Virus record (IMG/VR): IMGVR_UViG_3300046167_000873
Span: 64,001-128,000 of that record
Source: a virus
DNA: 64,000 nt
Strand: one strand, 5' to 3'
Shown here: positions 7,055 through 23,300 of the stretch, piece by piece
Layout: every line of letters starts with the position of its first letter
Position numbering within the stretch: the stretch's first letter is position 1
Program-made: the position numbers and the translations under genes
Notes under the pieces: generated by a model
Database searches by the model: none
Told to the model about the DNA's origin: nothing
What the model saw: only the letters and a program-made list of their open reading frames with translations

Positions 7055-7666
7055 TTAGATATTATAGGGATCGGCAAAGTTCATAGCTATATTCAACCTT
7101 TCTTCTTCACTTTTATTGGTTTCAACGCTATGTGATAACCACGCAGGAAATACAATCAATTCGTATTCTTTAGGCACATACACCATTGAACTTTTAAATT
7201 GATTATGAAGGTAAGGCGTTTCCATATAATTAGGAAGCATCGAATGTACACCAAACGAAAAGTTTTCGTGGCGACTAAACCTAATTCCACCTTGATCTGG
7301 TTTTTGTTTTAAATAATATACCGCAGCAAGAACTGCACCAGGGTGAGTATGGTCACAATTGTAATCGCCGTTCATATTCGAATTAAACCAGCCATAAGAC
7401 ATCATAAGATTCTCATTCATGAGAAAATATCTACGGCACAATTCGTTAATGTGTTTTTCTGCAACTTGGTACATATTATCAAGTGCAGGATTTATTTTTC
7501 TATCCGCACCTCTTTGCCAACCGCCTACATTAGAACGAATGATACCATCAGGATCTTCTTTACGAACTTGTTTGCAATGTTCAATGATAGCAAGGTTATC
7601 AACCTCTTCTGATAAATCAAAAGTATGAATTGCATCGTGCCATAGTTCGATTTTATTGCCTGACAT
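7055..7666 (-). CDS. Putative 2OG-Fe(II) oxygenase (TIGR02466-like)
   Basis: N..HTHPGAVLAAVYY, LIVFPAWLSHSV, RLNIAMN. Confidence 0.85.
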   Translation of the reverse strand: MSGNKIELWHDAIHTFDLSEEVDNLAIIEHCKQVRKEDPDGIIRSNVGGWQRGADRKINPALDNMYQVAEKHINELCRRYFLMNENLMMSYGWFNSNMNGDYNCDHTHPGAVLAAVYYLKQKPDQGGIRFSRHENFSFGVHSMLPNYMETPYLHNQFKSSMVYVPKEYELIVFPAWLSHSVETNKSEEERLNIAMNFADPYNI

Positions 7667-8318
7667 ATCTATGCCCTAATACTAAGTCAGTAGGAGCAAA
7701 TGGCACACTTAAACTAATTCGATCAGTTAATGATTCGATACAATGGTATTGTTTATACGGAATATACAGACAATCACCAGGATGCAACTCGTCTTCTATT
7801 AAGATGTTTTGTGACAAATCAAAGTCCCGCTTCATATTAAATTCTTCTGGGTGTATACTTAACTCTTCTGTGTGTATAAAATGACCTGCTTTATTGCCAT
7901 ATACTATAACTTTACTTACACCATCTAATTGAAATATGAGGTTAGTACAATTATCAAAATGTGGTGCAAAACCACCACCCTGAGCCTTAGAAATATATAG
8001 GTGACTACCTACAATTGGCTGTTCATCTTGTGCAGAAAAAATATCTCTAATCAATTCAATTAATTGATATGATTGGGAGTCTTTGATATCAATTTCCCAA
8101 TTAGTAATTACGAGCGAATGATTTTCTTCGTCAAAAGCTTTTCGTGCTTCTTCTCCAAATAGTCTATTTGATGACTGCATACCTGGATGTAATTTATCTA
8201 TCGCATCCATAACAACTGAAGGATCTATGTGCATATTATGCATTTTTCTAATAATTGCAGGATGATCGTTATACTCCATTTCAGCTCTTAATGCATATAA
8301 AAAAGAAGTTTCAATCAT
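7653..8318 (-). CDS. JmjC/cupin-4 (ribosomal oxygenase-like) hydroxylase
   Basis: GFAPHFD (HxD), QLDGVSK, LHPGDCLYIPYKQYH, RISLS. Confidence 0.85.
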   Translation of the reverse strand: MIETSFLYALRAEMEYNDHPAIIRKMHNMHIDPSVVMDAIDKLHPGMQSSNRLFGEEARKAFDEENHSLVITNWEIDIKDSQSYQLIELIRDIFSAQDEQPIVGSHLYISKAQGGGFAPHFDNCTNLIFQLDGVSKVIVYGNKAGHFIHTEELSIHPEEFNMKRDFDLSQNILIEDELHPGDCLYIPYKQYHCIESLTDRISLSVPFAPTDLVLGHRYVRQ

Positions 8319-9058
8319 AATATTGTGTGCTCATTTTTACTTGGTCGCATAAACATTTTTCGATACCATTGTTTAGCTGTAGATGGTGTACTTCTTTCTT
8401 TGTGAAGATCAATTTTATCAGCAATTCTACATGTAGATGTTATATTACCTTTTTGTAAAGGTATTATATGAAATAACGGTGTTCCAGCTTTAATCATAAA
8501 CCGCCCTTTTACAATAGGTGCAGCAATCATATTCATAGTATTAAATCCTTTGCTAGTATCAATAATGCCAGGATAGATATGAATCTTTCTTGCAATGTTG
8601 CCGTGATAATATGCTGGCATTAATGCAAATGAAAGATCAGTTGACTCAACCGCCCAGGGTGTTGTAAAATGCATTGCTTTTGGTCTTATGAGTTCAGAAT
8701 ATATAGGTAGCCTTGCAGGTATATCTGGGGATAATCCGTTACCTGCTGCTACAATTGGACAATGTTTTTTTAACGCTTCGTCTACAGGTGTAGACCTCTG
8801 ATTAACAGGGTCTGGATCACCATAATAAACCATGGTGCTTTTATCTGATGCGAATACATGTATATCCGTCCATGCTGGCATTATCCAACCGGTGTCTCTA
8901 TAGTCGGCCATTCCTGGACAAACAGTAAAACTGTCTTTTCCGTCTTTTTCTTTTTGAACATTTGATATGTTTTCAGTTTTTGAAGCAAGAGTAATAGGAT
9001 ACCAATGGATAACACCCATGTCTGATTTATCAATAAACTGAACATTAAAATCTGTCAT
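8315..9058 (-). CDS. Conserved phage protein with dUTPase-like beta-clip features (DUF6065-like)
   Basis: CPGMADY..GWIMPAW, PGIIDT, IKAGTPLFHIIP motifs; this family often sits beside oxygenases in aquatic T4-like phages. Confidence 0.6.
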   Translation of the reverse strand: MTDFNVQFIDKSDMGVIHWYPITLASKTENISNVQKEKDGKDSFTVCPGMADYRDTGWIMPAWTDIHVFASDKSTMVYYGDPDPVNQRSTPVDEALKKHCPIVAAGNGLSPDIPARLPIYSELIRPKAMHFTTPWAVESTDLSFALMPAYYHGNIARKIHIYPGIIDTSKGFNTMNMIAAPIVKGRFMIKAGTPLFHIIPLQKGNITSTCRIADKIDLHKERSTPSTAKQWYRKMFMRPSKNEHTIL

Positions 9059-9666
9059 TGTATTTGCCCTTTACCACGCACCCAAAAAACAAGAGTTTTT
9101 CTTATACCCTCACTGACAGGAGTAACACAATGGTGCATTGACGAATCAAATAAAATAACATCACCTTTATTCAAGGTAATATCTGTTGCCCTATTTTGAT
9201 CACCACCCGAAAGATCGATTTTAAGATCACCACCTTTATAGTCACTAGGATCTGATAACATCAAAACGCCTGATATCATACGATCCATTGGAACATAACC
9301 ATGCAAAGAACTATCACGATGCCAACCGTAATATGCATCATCTGAACCGTGGTATATAGTATATTGAAGATTTTCTATATGATCGATATTATACAAGAAT
9401 AAGTCGTAATTAGCTTGACTTACAATGCTAGCAAGTTTTTCAAAAATGAAACCGGTGTTTTCATCTATTGGAAGCCACCCGGTTTTTGTGATGCGTGTGT
9501 TAGGGTCTACTGAGCCTTCTTGCCCATCACCAACCTTAGCATCATCGAATTCTATAATCTTTTCGAAAAAAGTAATTCTATCAATTTCTTCTGCGTCGAA
9601 AGCGCCTTGAATCGTACCGTGCCGCTGCAACGGTACAGTAGGCAAAAGTTTTTGCACTGGGAACAT
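9055..9666 (-). CDS. 2OG-Fe(II) oxygenase, prolyl-4-hydroxylase/PKHD-like
   Basis: YGWHRD (HxD), DYKGGDL, HCVTPVSEGIRKTLVFW (distal His and Arg). Confidence 0.9.
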   Translation of the reverse strand: MFPVQKLLPTVPLQRHGTIQGAFDAEEIDRITFFEKIIEFDDAKVGDGQEGSVDPNTRITKTGWLPIDENTGFIFEKLASIVSQANYDLFLYNIDHIENLQYTIYHGSDDAYYGWHRDSSLHGYVPMDRMISGVLMLSDPSDYKGGDLKIDLSGGDQNRATDITLNKGDVILFDSSMHHCVTPVSEGIRKTLVFWVRGKGQIQ

Positions 9667-9709: not shown

Positions 9710-11653
9710 CTATGTGTACTTTATATTTATAAACCCACCAGAGCCGACTGTTGCAGTTGCCTGTTTAGTTGCAGTACTTCCAGTTGATGGAATACCTCTT
9801 GGATCCCAAACAGTTGTTTGAGATGATGGGCCTGTTATAGGACCAAATCCACTTGCATTGGCGCCGGGTGCAGTAATAACCCCTGCGGTTCCTAAATTAA
9901 CGGTAGTTGGTGTTCCAGGTTGCCCTGATGTAAATCCTGACGAAAAGCTGTATGGTTGTACTGTAAACGCAGGAGTTACATTAAATCCACTTGTTGGCTT
10001 TTGACCAGTAACTCCATAAGAATAAGGCTGATTATAAGAATATTGCTGAGGCTTTTGCCCAGTTGTAGCAAACGTGTAAGGTTGTGTATAAGAATACGGC
10101 TGTGGCTTTGATCCAGTTGTAGCAAACGAATATGGCTGTACCAGAAAACCACTTGCAGGTTTTTGACCAGTTGTTGCAAATGGATACGGCGTTAATCTAA
10201 AGACACTTGTTACAGGTTTTGTTCCAGTCGTACCATACGAATATGGTTGCGAAAAGAATACACTTGTTACAGGTTTTGTTCCAGTTGTTGCAAACGAATA
10301 TGGTTGCACTCTAGTACCGCTTACTGGTTTAGTACCACCAGCTTGAAACGGATACGGTTGATTATATGAATATTGTACTTGCTTAGTACCGCCTGCTTGA
10401 AACGGATAAGGCTGTGAAAAGTATCCAGAAGCAGGAAAAGTACCAACAGCTTGAAAAGGATATGGCGCAATCCGAAAACCAGCGTTTGGTGTTTGCCCTT
10501 GAGTTGGTGTAATACCAGCAGCGGTATAATTATATGGCTGTTGATTGTCAACTGGCTTTTGGCCAGTCAAGACTCTCCATCCAGATCTTGCTGTTCCATA
10601 TGGGAATGGCTTCGCTCCCCACTTACTACCTTGAGCCGTATATGTATAAGGCGACGATGATGGTTGATTTGGGCCAGAGGGGTTTCCCTGCAGCGAGGCA
10701 CACTGCGGGATTGGTCTTCGGTTCGTTGAAAAAACACCGTCGGCGTTGATTGTGCATTGAGTTTGCGCAGTCCTTACTTTGAAACCACTTCCTGGGACCG
10801 GATATTGATATTTGTACGAAGTAAAACTAAAAGTACTGAAATCCGTATAAGAATATGGCTGACCATAAGGATAGGATGAAAATGTTGTAAATGGCTTTTG
10901 GCCAGTAGTTTGATACGCATAACCTACATTATATGGATATGGTGATTGAAAACCATAAGATTGCGGTGTAGAACCGAATGTACCGTATGTATAAAACCCA
11001 GTATATGAATATAAAGCCTGTTTAGAGCCGGTTGTTGCAAATGAATATGGCTGCGAACTGAATACACCAGTAACTGGCTTTGTTCCAGTCGTACCATATG
11101 TATATGGTTGATTGTAACCATATGGTTGTTGCTTAGTACCACCTGCCTGAAAAGGATATGGTTGATTATATGAATATTGTACTTGTTTAGTACCAGGCGC
11201 CTGAAAAGGATATGGTTGATTATATGAATATTGCTGTGGTGTTTGCCCTTGAGTAGTATATGGATATGGTGCTTGAAAACCATAAGGTTGTTGCTTAGTA
11301 CCACCTGCTTGAAACGGATAAGGCGTTAACCTAAAAACTCCAGTTACAGGTTTTGTACCAGGTGCTTGAAAAGGATATGGAGTTAACCTAAAAACATTAG
11401 TTACAGGTTTAGTACCACTGACAGTAAATGGATAAGGTGATTGATAACCGTATGGCTGATTATAAGAATACGGTTGTTGTTTAGTACCAGATGAATAGGT
11501 ATTAAAACCGCCAGTAGAAGATCCTCCTTGCAAAGAAACTTCTAATAATTTTCTTCCATAGGGTAAAGATATTTGACCAGGAGTTGTGCGGGTTACATCA
11601 AATGTATCAGCCCATGTCCTATTTAAAAAACCCTTTCCACCGCCAGCTGGCAT
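9710..11653 (-). CDS. Pro/Tyr/Gln/Thr/Gly repeat protein; putative fibre-tip appendage/adhesin
   Basis: 647 aa. About 20 units of G(T/Q/S)K...PY(P/S/T)(F/Y)xxx in two arms around a C-x17-C core. Gly-rich termini (SLQGG...; GSGGFINIKY). SD AAGGAG. Lies directly downstream of a fibre gene. Confidence 0.75.
   Translation of the reverse strand: MPAGGGKGFLNRTWADTFDVTRTTPGQISLPYGRKLLEVSLQGGSSTGGFNTYSSGTKQQPYSYNQPYGYQSPYPFTVSGTKPVTNVFRLTPYPFQAPGTKPVTGVFRLTPYPFQAGGTKQQPYGFQAPYPYTTQGQTPQQYSYNQPYPFQAPGTKQVQYSYNQPYPFQAGGTKQQPYGYNQPYTYGTTGTKPVTGVFSSQPYSFATTGSKQALYSYTGFYTYGTFGSTPQSYGFQSPYPYNVGYAYQTTGQKPFTTFSSYPYGQPYSYTDFSTFSFTSYKYQYPVPGSGFKVRTAQTQCTINADGVFSTNRRPIPQCASLQGNPSGPNQPSSSPYTYTAQGSKWGAKPFPYGTARSGWRVLTGQKPVDNQQPYNYTAAGITPTQGQTPNAGFRIAPYPFQAVGTFPASGYFSQPYPFQAGGTKQVQYSYNQPYPFQAGGTKPVSGTRVQPYSFATTGTKPVTSVFFSQPYSYGTTGTKPVTSVFRLTPYPFATTGQKPASGFLVQPYSFATTGSKPQPYSYTQPYTFATTGQKPQQYSYNQPYSYGVTGQKPTSGFNVTPAFTVQPYSFSSGFTSGQPGTPTTVNLGTAGVITAPGANASGFGPITGPSSQTTVWDPRGIPSTGSTATKQATATVGSGGFINIKYT
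9724..9731 (-). promoter_or_regulatory. Candidate late promoter TATAAATA for the oxygenase cluster
   Basis: Exact motif 58 bp upstream of the 9666 start; it lies within the last codons of the repeat gene, so it could be coincidental. Confidence 0.55.
9935..10498 (-). repeat. C-terminal arm: tandem 54/57-bp (18/19-aa) coding repeats
   Basis: e.g. GTKQVQYSYNQPYPFQAG, GTKPVTSVFRLTPYPFATT, GSKPQPYSYTQPYTFATT. Confidence 0.9.
10904..11488 (-). repeat. N-terminal arm: tandem 54/57-bp (18/19-aa) coding repeats
   Basis: e.g. GTKPVTNVFRLTPYPFQAP, GTKPVTGVFRLTPYPFQAG, GTKQVQYSYNQPYPFQAG. Confidence 0.9.
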
Positions 11654-11662
11654 ACTTACTCC

Positions 11663-13007
11663 TTATTGTGCAAATCCAGCATTACGGAAACTCAAGCTAC
11701 CGTATATCTGTCCACTTATATTTATAAAGCTATATATGTCTATTCCAGAACTAGGAGGTGGTTCAATACCATCTGACCAAAAAACTTTATCTGCTTCACC
11801 TGATCCTGGCCACGTGCAAGATCTAGCAGTTCCATTATTGTTAATGACTAATGTAAACGTTGTAGATCCGCCGGCTGCGGTTGCAGCATAATTAGAAAAG
11901 TCAATCGAGTATGAAGCGGTTGGTGTAAATGTGTGTACTGACCCACTATTAACATCAAGTGTGTACGCAGTACCAGAACCGCCTGCAACAACCTTTTCTT
12001 GAAAACAATCATTAGCTGTAATTCTTGCTGCATTAACACCATTGTTATTAACTTCAATTCTTTCTGTTCCACCAGTTACAACTCTAAATTGATCTGCTGC
12101 ATGAAATTGCGCGTAAGTATTAGTATCACCAATGTGAACAATAGCATTACCAAGATTAACATTAGCTGTTGCTGTAACATTAGGAGCAGTAATGAGACCA
12201 GAGCCTGATACAGTAATATTAGAAGTCGTTGCTAAAGTAGACGTAAGAGTTAATCCTCGGCCTGTAATATCACCAGAAGTATTAACATCAAATACTTGTG
12301 ACATTGTAACGTCACCGTCAATTGCAACTGTAGCCGCTGCACCTGAAAAATAACGTAAACCAGATGAGTCAAGAATAAGTGCTTGTTTATTGAAATCTGA
12401 GTTACCAGCTGAAGAAACAAATGCGTCGGCAACACCTGATTTTGGCCTAACTGCATATCCAAGTGCAATACCACCTGATGATGCCATTGATCCAACAGTC
12501 GCTATTTTATTAGCACCAGTATAATTGCCTGCTAGCATTAATGCGCCAGAGGTTGATGTTGCATCACCTGCGGTAATTACACCTGAGGATGATCCAGTCG
12601 CAACAGTAATATCAGTATTAAATGTTGTTGTTGACGTAGATTCATCAATGAACATTACATTTACATTGGAACTAGGTGTCACCAAGATTAATAATAAAAT
12701 CTTTAGATGTACCGTTATCTGTAATAGTAACTCCGCTAGGAGTAAAACCAAACTTTGCACGATCATTAGACAAAAAGCTTGATGTGCCGCTAGTGGTATT
12801 ACCATCATCAATTCTAATTACAGATTGAGCAGAAGTTGCAGCAGTAACATCAAGTGCGTACGCAGGATTTGATCTGTTAATACCAACCCTATCGGTAGAA
12901 GAATTGACAAATAAAGTGTCTGTATCAACTGCTACGTTTCCACCAACATCTAAGCCGCCAGTGATTTTTAAACCATCAAGCGCATCGAATTTTTGTGAAG
13001 TTGCCAT
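11663..13007 (-). CDS. Tail fibre protein split by a +1 frameshift near 12675
   Basis: The 5' ORF (VDTDTLFVNSSTDRVGIN) ends at GGT GAC ACC TAG. The fibre-like sequence continues in the next frame (PSSNVNVMFID...GDTNTYAQF...VFWSDGIEP...IDIYSF). The first ~45 aa of the 382-aa ORF look like shadow sequence. Confidence 0.75.
11719..11726 (-). promoter_or_regulatory. Candidate late promoter TATAAATA upstream of the repeat-protein gene
   Basis: Exact motif 66 bp upstream of the 11653 start, inside the 3' end of the fibre gene. Confidence 0.5.
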
Positions 13008-20354: not shown

Positions 20355-23300
20355 TTATCGAAGTTTTAGAGCGCGGTCATATTTCTTAAACCTTGTTCCG
20401 CCGGTTGTTGGCTTCTTAACTGGTTCTGGCTCTTTGAACACAGTAGGTACAGAAGGTACTGGGATATTTATTCTTGTTGGTATCCGCGTCCTGACCGGTT
20501 GAATAACTACCTGCTCTATTGGTGGTGGAGGAGGTGGCGGAGACTTAATCGGTACTGGCGGACTAGCCGGTTGTGTTGTTACCCGATCAGGTACTTTTAC
20601 CCTAATAGGATTCTTAATAATAGTATTAAGAAGATTAAAGGTTACCTGAGGCCCACGAACTGGTGTTGGCAGTAATAACAGGTGGTGGCGTTGGAACCTT
20701 AATAACCTTACGTACACCGCCAGTTGCTGCCGGAGAGAATGCTAACTCATCTTGCTCGATTTCACATTCAGGATCTACACCAATAACACAACCATCATCA
20801 CCGATTACGATAGGTGGTTCTGGTTCACATACCTCAATCTCTGGTTCAGGTTCCACAACTTTAACTGGGCACCGATCAGGGTTAGCTTTAGCAGAAGCTA
20901 GTTTGATCGAACAATTACCTCTAGAATCCTGTTTACCTGTGTACTGATAAACATATAGCAATCCATCTTTGCAGTAGTCTTTATTAAATGTACCAGCAGA
21001 AGGACATGGATTAACTGGATCTGGTTCAGGCGCTGGAGGAATAATAATACATCGACTACTATTTGTCTGTCGTGATCCAACTACTGTTTTACAGTTACCA
21101 TCTTCAACATATGTTACATAGTCGTTACCAACACATCGTGCGTACAAGAACTTACCTTTAGGTGGGCAAGGAGGAGTTGTGTTGATTGTCGTAGAACCTG
21201 CATCATAAACAGGATCAACGATGCTTGTAGCAGGATAGCAAACTTCATAATTAAATACTTTGCCCCACTTCAATGCTCGGACTGTAATGTAACGGCCTTT
21301 TGACTCATCGTATGGAATCGTTATCTTACCAGCACCTCGATAAGCTTTATAAGTCTTATTAGGTAAACCTGGTATATTCGTCATAATCTTCGAACTATTA
21401 GATAACGAAGTAAACCATGGATTTGTTTGAAAAGGAATTGCAGAATTGCTACCATTTCTCACGTCGTAAAACTTCTGATAAATCTTAAATGCTTCAGCAC
21501 CACCTAAACTTTCAGCAGTTTCAACTGAACTTGACCAAATCACGTTACCCTTTTCTATGACAGAGCCAGATCTGGGTGGTGTGCTTGTTTGAAGAACTTC
21601 AAATCCAATACCTGCGACACCGGAACTTGGAATATAGAATTTTATATCAATATTCCGTGCTGTACCATCATTTCTATCTGTTCCAGTAAATGTAGTCTCT
21701 TCCCACACACCTTGAGCCTTTATAAATGTCCCAATATTTTCTGAAGAAAATCGAGTATTTTGGCTTCTTACAAACTGGCAAACAGTTTGAATTTCAGGTT
21801 CAGGTGGTTGTTCAATATATGGACCATATGTTGCATTCTTTTGACTTAACAACCTGAATCGCTGAGCAGGATAAACAATCTTACCACCAGTTACTTGGTC
21901 GGGATTGCAAGGTTCTAGGCTTAGAACAGATGTTGTCTTTTGTGGATACAAATTATATTCATAAATTGATGCAGCAAACTCTTGATTCTGAGTATCAGAT
22001 CGATTAAAGTTTTCAAAGTTATCAGCATAGAATCCGTACTTGAATTTTTCAAGAGTTGAATCAATTGAACTCGGAAAACTTAAGGTTCTTGTTTCGTTTT
22101 CCAATTCAGATAGGTTTTGGTTATATTCTAAAGATATAATCCTACGCTCAAGCTCAGCAATCTGAGCCATCGTATAACCTTGTGTTTGGTCATCGAGCTT
22201 TTCAATTGAACAAGTATACTTTGTCAGTTTTGTTCGTGATGCTCTTGTTGATATAACACCATTTAATGTTATCTCTCGAAGCTCATTTGATAGAACAAGA
22301 GGTAAACTAGGATACGGTGCAACATCAATCTTATATAGCTGTAAGCGGTTTGCATTGCTCTTAATATTGAGGTCACGAGTACCGATATTGAAAACAAACT
22401 CACCTTCGTTTGTAAGAGCGATCACGTCAGTGCGGCCGTCATACGACGTTAAATCATATGTAAGATCACCTTGTGGTATTGGGAAAGCGTAACCAGCGAT
22501 CGCTGAGAAGCTCTCAACATCACTTGGATCAGTACTTGCAGCTGCAGGTGTTGTTGCACTCGTTGCAGTAGGATCGCAATAAGGTCTAAAGTCTAAACAA
22601 TCCCTCAACAGAACTTCATAGTTTTCAGAAGTTCTAATATGGTAAGGAATCTCTAATGTATTGACATTAGTTGTTAGCCCTGATAAAGGAACCTCGTCGT
22701 TGATTGTATATGAGTCAACAGTTTTAACACCTTTAGAATCAGAAGGCACAAAGTGATCGAGCTCAACCAATATTGTTGCAGCTAAAGTTGATGGAGTTCC
22801 TTCTTCACGATACAGCTTACTTAAACCCCAGAATCCATCTTTTTGACCATCTTCAACATAAAATTCTTGAGTAATTTTAGCAGCTGTTGTATCTGTTCCG
22901 TTATAAACTTCTCTTAACCTAAAGACACCTGGTAAACCAAGCGACTTTGGAAATGCACCGGTCGTTGATATTTTCACAAAACGATTACGGTTTGCAGTAA
23001 TTGGTGTTGATGAAACATTCTTTGCTTTGACGTTATAGGTAACAGCCAGAGTAACAGATGTCGTAGTTATAGGTTGACCTGCACCGAGGTTAATTGTCAT
23101 CGACGTGCGATCACTATTAACTGTAGCATTTGCTGTTGTTCGAGAACCTAAGTTGATTGGAATATTCTTTGGGAATACCCTTCGCATTGGTTCAGCACTA
23201 AATGCAAATGAACCCGAAGGCTTTCGAATTGTAATTCTGTCTTGAGAATCTACACTTAAGACTTGTACAACATCGCCAGAGTTATTCTTGATCCAATCAC

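Follow-up and report, generated by a model that had tools for sequence, protein, structure and literature searches.

The tip of the T4 long tail fibre is formed by gp37, in which a collar (D10) is followed by a needle (D11), and the base is split between residues 811-881 and 1010-1026 (PMC6957217). The stem of the needle runs out through residues 882-931, passes around the tip, and comes back through residues 960-1009. The needle is a trimer held by seven His-bound irons, and the whole long fibre measures 145 nm (PMC6957217). In T-even-type phages such as Salmonella phage S16, the adhesin gp38 (PDB 6F45) has an attachment domain of three helices with three Trp, together with a beta-helix and a sandwich of polyglycine II type, and docks through its Trp residues (PMC6851490). 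In gp24 of Pam3, a TNF-like sandwich extends into polyglycine loops (PMC9608196).

The window, i.e., the whole stretch of 64,000 nucleotides analysed here, is part of a 150,920-bp contig of an uncultured marine T4-like myophage, which also carries baseplate, fibre, neck (gp13-15), terminase, and replication genes. Its terminase is less than 60% identical to that of every GenBank phage, the best being that of Sinorhizobium phage phiM12. DNA of the contig is present in seawater runs, and no RNA run was found to hold it among the runs listed. Between a tail-fibre gene and four oxygenase-type genes on the minus strand lies an open reading frame for a repeat protein of 647 aa (Table 1); the frame is real and has a ribosome-binding site. 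The chain of this protein very probably folds back on itself, so that a small base domain would bear a slender, self-pairing stalk of considerable length. The same amino acid sequence recurs unchanged in four assemblies made independently, one of them full-length and three partial. Contigs from three runs span the gene without indels or joints, and the gene is real rather than an artefact of assembly. In run X7, a strain that differs by 74 substitutions over 2.5 kb is gap-free across most of the gene. No paralogue of the protein was found elsewhere in its genome.

Table 1. Positions in the window of the repeat gene, its parts, and its neighbours
Feature	Coordinates	Strand	Basis or remark
Whole gene, 647-aa fold-back repeat protein	9710..11653	(-)	ORF and sequence
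N cap (aa 1-55): aromatic leader (F9, W14) and three beta strands	11489..11653	(-)	Alignment, AlphaFold
Outer 24-aa unit of N arm, Y type (aa 56-79)	11417..11488	(-)	Faces F-type aa 550-573
N (outgoing) arm, aa 80-244; its nine units read F,F,Y,Y,Y,Y,F,Y,Y	10922..11416	(-)	Sequence
Irregular core and tip, aa 245-385	10499..10921	(-)	Sequence
Codon of C300	10754-10756	(-)	In core/tip
Codon of C318	10700-10702	(-)	In core/tip
C (returning) arm, aa 386-549; from the outside, its nine units read Y,Y,F,F,F,F,Y,F,F	10007..10498	(-)	Sequence
Outer 24-aa unit of C arm, F type (aa 550-573)	9935..10006	(-)	Sequence
C cap (aa 574-647), ending in a conserved G-F/Y-I-N-I-K-Y strand	9710..9934	(-)	Alignment, AlphaFold
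T4-type late promoter TATAAATA	9724..9731	(-)	Within F-I-N-I codons of the repeat gene's last strand
Tail-fibre gene, upstream, 447 aa intact	11663..13007	(-)	Likely docking partner
2OG-Fe(II) oxygenase, prolyl-hydroxylase-like (PF13640)	9055..9666	(-)	
phrog_7084 protein, JmjC oxygenase (PF08007), 2OG-FeII_Oxy_5 (PF13759)	7055..9058	(-)	

A preliminary description of this DNA divided each arm (aa 80-244 and 386-549) into nine units of 18-19 aa flanked by 24-aa units, and re-splitting at the G-x-K anchor returned the same division. It was also right that C300 and C318 are the sole cysteines of the protein. The absence of Asp and Glu from the repeats holds for the window protein but not as a general feature, as acidic residues are common in other lineages. 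If the arms are laid antiparallel, the first halves of all nine facing pairs are of opposite types, as had been claimed (permutation p 0.012), and 10/10 pairs are opposite once the outer 24-aa units are added (p 0.008). Since the unit-type labels were picked after the data had been seen, the test was repeated label-free, with BLOSUM scores used to see whether the similarity of facing halves falls below that of shuffled pairs; for the first halves of the window protein this gave p 0.013. The code proposed for the second halves stands in part. All seven FQA halves face non-FQA halves, with 7/8 pairs opposite (p 0.07; label-free p 0.016), but the code does not extend beyond the window lineage: it holds only in the window protein and two relatives (L001 and L062), with FQA halves opposed to xxT halves, and the label-free test found no second-half signal in L052, L056, and L060.

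Shifted antiparallel registers of the window protein are about 60% opposite at best, and its best parallel register is 8/10 opposite. The unit-start sums are constant at 612-614 despite unit lengths of 18 or 19; thus, cumulative arm length is matched as well. At the DNA level, direct repeats are common to both arms. No inverted DNA repeat was found in the repeat gene, which rules out an inverted DNA duplication as the source of the mirror pattern. The Pro content of 13% is unusual for regular beta ribbons and counts against a hairpin. Taken alone, complementarity in the window is suggestive and constitutes modest evidence.

Relatives had to be sought by context. No homologue came from word-based searches, whether the query was the protein, its C cap, or a family alignment; among GenBank phages, the 647-aa protein, one distant relative, and the fibre end had no match, nor did the repeat protein in Pfam, PHROG, and PDB sequence searches. 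Among 1.84 billion proteins, phmmer returned four matches to the repeat protein, one of which (P0011) was rejected as a composition artefact; a genome-collection match (L055) was likewise discarded as spurious. P0011 (L010:6967-11406) is an unrelated phage protein of 1479 aa with long 19-aa Gly-x-Gln-Pro repeats, and its gene adjoins glycosyltransferase and tape-measure genes. Relatives were found via the neighbour genes on either side, namely, the oxygenase gene behind the repeat gene and, in the fibre gene ahead of it, the stretch for the conserved C-terminal domain. Around 20 distinct alleles, from 487 to 973 aa, occupy the same gene slot, and all of them have the N cap and the C cap in common with wholly different sequence in between. 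In every relative with flanking DNA, the locus lies between fibre genes and neck genes. Most members of the family are absent from the protein collection searched, and no family model exists for them, so that they pass unnoticed. A further allele, L018:4772-7288, is a frameshifted assembly whose N arm seems to be of a QGVQK type and whose C arm seems to be of an RY-NN type; its arms may use separate alphabets, like those of L020. At L019:324-533, the same N cap is followed by Gly/Pro/Arg-rich sequence and an early stop, possibly a different type of insert or a chimeric contig.

Several relatives use the same repeat alphabet as the window protein, and in these Y/F complementarity is kept, as the preliminary description anticipated. 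L062, which is 69% identical to the window protein, has 9/9 facing pairs opposite; relative to the window, its pair 7 is swapped in both arms, and so is one second-half pair. In L052 and L056 (669 aa), one arm reads F,F,Y,Y,F,F,Y,Y,F and the other has the opposite type at every place (10/10 each, p 0.004, although p-values across relatives are not independent, for the proteins share ancestry). L060 (594 aa) has seven units per arm, i.e., two fewer per side than the window, and 8/8 pairs are opposite. The lone C arm of L009 was seen first, and the N-arm order that it required was later found in L060. The expectation that units would be gained or lost in both arms together is thus borne out by the 9+9 and 7+7 forms. 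It is not universal, however: in the allele at L063:2757-4649, a C-arm unit near the tip is missing and the N arm is unchanged. The deletion site in L063 has almost no microhomology and no long exact repeat, which counts against matched arms; L064, a sister contig, breaks off shortly before the deletion. In L031, the C arm is four units short through a 222-nt loss at a 26-nt exact repeat, and the rest has only three mismatches to the balanced L056; L031 is therefore most likely a collapsed assembly and was set aside as an unequal-arm counter-example. L001 is shorter because of a scaffold gap. Cysteines at the tip are confined to the repeat lineage of the window, where there are two or four, and none occur in seven other relatives. 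L052, L056, and L060 carry four. The pairs are nested: 300/318 in the window, and 308/336 and 310/328 in L052.

Other members of the family have different repeat alphabets, without cysteines and with acidic residues. In L023 (973 aa, 17-aa units), an aromatic residue faces a non-aromatic one at unit position 5 in 20/20 pairs of a single gapless register (p 1.5e-5; label-free 4e-5; second halves 2e-5), and the best parallel register gives 14/20. In L020 (782 aa), Q-type halves face V-type halves in 17 of 18 pairs (p 3e-4; label-free 4e-4), against 11/18 for the best parallel register. L027 and L039 have 8+8 and 6+6 units, with lengths matched between arms. L033 and L050 look complementary by label and are matched in unit length; the label-free test was not significant for either (p 0.6 and 0.9). 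Thus, the rule common to the family is complementarity and not any one motif. A parallel register is excluded by the long relatives together with the joined termini, and not by the window alone. Antiparallel self-complementary pairing of the arms, which the preliminary description had proposed as a hairpin with a knob-and-hole register code, is supported by the compensating swaps and the matched gains and losses, and appears highly probable.

The register itself needed correction. It had been placed at i+j near 629, and this was not borne out: first halves pair with first halves, and a register scan favours 624-626, the sole clean register. In that scan, five same-alphabet proteins were pooled, and unit position was compared with facing position at twelve offsets. 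A single offset had no aromatic-aromatic, Pro-Pro, or basic-basic facing pairs; at this same offset, i+j of 624-626 in the window protein, aromatics are opposite Gly, Ala, or Ser in 39% of cases, more than at any other of the twelve. Tyr13 then lies across from the Gly at the start of each unit, Tyr7 in Y units across from Gly7 in F units, and the FQA Gln across from a small residue. Aromatics pack over glycine in antiparallel strands, a pattern with which the Tyr-over-Gly register that we infer from the sequences would agree. Neither AlphaFold run modelled the arms with confidence, their pLDDT being about 25-35; the single-sequence run on the whole protein had a pLDDT of 34.

With an 18-sequence alignment, only the ends of the chain folded, with strands in residues 17-53 and 572-646, those of the N cap being 18-22, 26-30, and 36-42. 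The pLDDT of the cap blocks was 50-72 in most. In a structure search with this model, single small domains of beta-sandwich or jelly-roll type could be superposed on 80-105 of its residues, drawn from positions 9-647, with Z up to 7.5 and an rmsd of about 3 A. The best matches, by which a gp12-type collar fold was judged as well, were generic beta-sandwiches of Z under 8 with no one family prominent; jelly-roll-type matches such as APRIL (Z 5.7) and C1q (Z 5.7) were among many. Because the matched residues exceed what the C cap can supply, both caps are needed in the one domain. The chain ends adjoin in the model, and the chain thus needs a return path. That the base is built from both termini therefore agrees with the AlphaFold model and the fold search; the Gly-rich, gp38-type base that had been envisaged does not, a jelly-roll-type beta-sandwich appearing in its place. 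An AlphaFold complex of aa 1-135 with aa 496-647 reached a median of 0.29 against a mark of 0.32 and does not enter the evidence. Foldseek found no match at E 0.001 or better in PDB and BFVD, and Pam3 gp24, ALK, and gp37 were absent from the fold matches listed.

As for the origin of the base, Atlas features weakly suggest the PF21722 family for the caps (0.82); the Atlas structure rows were set aside, as the underlying model had a pLDDT of 0.42. Glycine-rich-domain proteins also make up many of the weak BFVD matches (E 0.6-2), and in L028, where the fibre end is a distant relative, the slot behind it is filled by a true PF21722 gene. Pfam gave no PF21722 hit above cut-off for the whole protein, the caps, or the relatives, and profile comparison of the caps with the L028 protein gave no alignment. 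With low to moderate confidence, the base may descend from the beta part of PF21722 glycine-rich-domain proteins; at the same low to moderate level, the giant hairpin may have replaced the polyglycine loops of such an ancestor.

The first 55 and last 75 residues are thus modelled, with moderate confidence, as interlocking into one small jelly-roll-type beta-sandwich, in one loop of which some 520 residues would be inserted. On the strength of the covariation, about 250 residues would run outward, turn at the Cys-bearing core, and return, pairing antiparallel with the outgoing arm. Each unit of 18-19 residues would form two short strand segments, with prolines presumably breaking the strand every half unit. 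As Tyr would face Gly or a small residue and an aromatic never another aromatic, a Y unit would fit an F unit only, and the order of Y and F would set a single register and block slippage in a repetitive chain. Recombination between the direct DNA repeats common to both arms may add, drop, or swap units, and selection would retain those versions whose arms still match; the matched changes are observed. At 3.4 A for each of 250 residues, we estimate that the stalk would be at most about 85 nm long when fully extended and shorter if coiled. By analogy with gp38, its Tyr/Thr/Lys-rich surface or tip would most likely be what touches the glycans of the host surface first, and docking on the C-terminal domain of the upstream fibre would fall to the conserved aromatic leader. 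In its simplest form, the stalk would be a single chain pairing with itself.

The conserved C-terminal domain of the fibre gene directly precedes the repeat gene in all relatives. In the window, an extra base at 12679/12680 splits the 447-aa fibre gene into two open reading frames; it is absent from L003 and three other runs, and is most likely an assembly error. In the fibre gene, L003 and runs X1 and X3 differ from the window by six substitutions clustered at 12786-12795; they change two codons and mark a small recombined or variable patch. Further away, at 20635-21100, a 1709-aa baseplate/fibre protein ends in repeats rich in Cys and Pro that look like small disulfide modules. On the other side of the repeat gene, the late promoter at its end is placed to drive the downstream oxygenase genes. 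It is kept in 14 of the 18 loci that hold the gene end; in two of the 14 it is shifted, in one case to just past the stop. A second late promoter, also TATAAATA, occurs at 11719-11726 in the F-I-N-I codons ending the fibre gene and is kept in the closest relatives only.

Wherever a locus extends downstream, the repeat gene is followed by a 2OG-Fe(II) oxygenase-type gene. The phrog_7084, JmjC, and 2OG-FeII_Oxy_5 genes, putative modifiers of the fibre, are kept in several, not all, relatives; others have an added DUF6065 gene or retain the first oxygenase alone. We regard the block at 7055-9666 as a candidate virion-protein hydroxylation system. With the late promoter ahead of them, the oxygenases would be late genes, which fits modification of a Pro/Tyr-rich protein during assembly.

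The pairing could also be shared among chains. Covariation is equal for within-chain and between-chain pairs, so that three chains might run out and back in a six-stranded needle, with some pairs between chains and three bases seated on a trimeric fibre. Tail fibres are usually trimers, the same nested topology is found in gp37 (PMC6957217), and TNF-like bases occur in trimeric Pam3 gp24 (PMC9608196). We nonetheless consider such a needle unlikely, because the arms of the window lineage are without His, hence without iron sites to tie three chains, because no trimer-forming helical segment is evident, and because the strict one-to-one Tyr-Gly code would suggest a self-contained two-strand ribbon. 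A domain-swapped antiparallel dimer, the N arm of one chain pairing with the C arm of the other in a rod of double length with a base at each end, fits all of the covariation results equally well. It is quite improbable, given that the irregular core lacks complementarity over its full length, that nested Cys pairs suit a closed turn, and that fold-back within one chain would be kinetically favoured. The single-chain form of the pairing is thus preferred, and we hold it to be fairly probable.

Low pLDDT in the arms, a Tyr/Pro/Gln/Gly-rich composition, and the modest statistics of the window, where one parallel register reaches 8/10, would all agree with arms that are disordered, of polyproline-II low-complexity type, or a parallel solenoid, the mirror pattern being due to duplication or chance. 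Duplication, however, would make facing units alike and not opposite, and there is no inverted DNA repeat. Moreover, repeat alphabets that are mutually unalignable obey complementarity, and parallel registers reach only 14/20 in L023 and 11/18 in L020. The relatives have already largely refuted this reading, and we find it scarcely credible. The hairpin might on the other hand be real and yet serve as a neck or capsid whisker, a spacer, a sensor, or a scaffold for oxygenase decoration rather than a receptor-seeking tip; the neck genes are 3-5 kb downstream, and at every locus an oxygenase gene with a conserved late promoter stands behind the repeat gene. Such a role is very improbable, for the same fibre C-terminal domain is directly ahead in all relatives, more distant phages fill the slot with Gly-rich-domain proteins, and a hypervariable middle between conserved caps is typical of adhesins. 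A virion role at the fibre tip is accordingly quite likely. The reading as a whole, in which a fibre-tip appendage with a split base carries one self-pairing antiparallel hairpin with a register code, is on balance probable.

Long protein fibres are, to our knowledge, coiled coils, collagen helices, or trimeric beta-helices and spirals. If the proposed structure is correct, it would add a new fibre type, with 250-400 residues per arm self-paired by a readable unit code. Its design rules would be simple, i.e., Tyr over Gly, opposite unit types, and matched length, and it would be to proteins what the stem-loop is to nucleic acids, as well as a programmable building block. Such a fibre would also account for the hypervariability of one tail-fibre slot in uncultured marine T4-like phages. 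Marine phages have 2OG-Fe(II) oxygenase genes that are unexplained, and through the linked late-promoter oxygenases the repeat protein would become a concrete candidate for their substrate. The chances are about even that it represents a new class of fibrous protein, a one-chain, two-stranded antiparallel beta ribbon with a length of tens of nanometres, a binary unit code in several alphabets on a common base domain, a length that paired changes of units can adjust, and possible maturation by dedicated, late-expressed oxygenases.

No coded fold-back fibre design was found among solved structures or in the literature searched, which covered few subscription papers; the nested topology and the probable role have precedents. 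In SMC and Rad50 proteins, antiparallel coiled-coil arms separate ends that form one domain, and Rad50 has cysteines at the apex. The joined chain ends with a long self-pairing arm between them are alike by analogy, not homology; SMC and Rad50 are alpha-helical, have ATPase heads and a chromosome function, and lack a binary unit code. In PF21722 proteins, Pam3 gp24, and the TNF-like/glycine-rich domain of ALK (PMC9608196), a small TNF-like or jelly-roll sandwich, which the base of the window protein may resemble, has strands that extend into long distal loops; the cap motifs of PF21722 look alike, and the distant relative L028 has such a protein in the same slot. The window protein differs in having a single giant insert in place of a polyglycine lattice, and kinship is a lead only.

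Like gp38, the window protein is encoded by a separate gene directly behind the fibre gene and has a conserved aromatic N terminus and a hypervariable distal part; unlike gp38, it has a complementary repeat insert of 520 residues and no polyglycine runs. A polyglycine II sandwich is not indicated, there being no Gly run longer than three and 1-11% Gly in the arms across relatives. Nor was a three-helix, three-Trp N terminus found: the 17-residue leader has one invariant Trp (W14), and no helices were modelled. With T4 gp37 it would share a split base, an inserted out-and-back stem, and a distal fibre role. The gp37 stem, however, has about 50 residues per arm, as opposed to about 250 in the window protein (about 400 in L023), and the gp37 needle is part of the fibre chain itself and is without interchangeable complementary repeats. 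His is absent from the window protein and from the arms of L062, L056, L060, L020, L023, and L033, and no Pfam, PHROG, or PDB sequence match pointed to homology with the collar and needle of gp37/gp12. The window protein would work like a gp37-type fold-back in a gp38-type gene slot, and it belongs to neither group.
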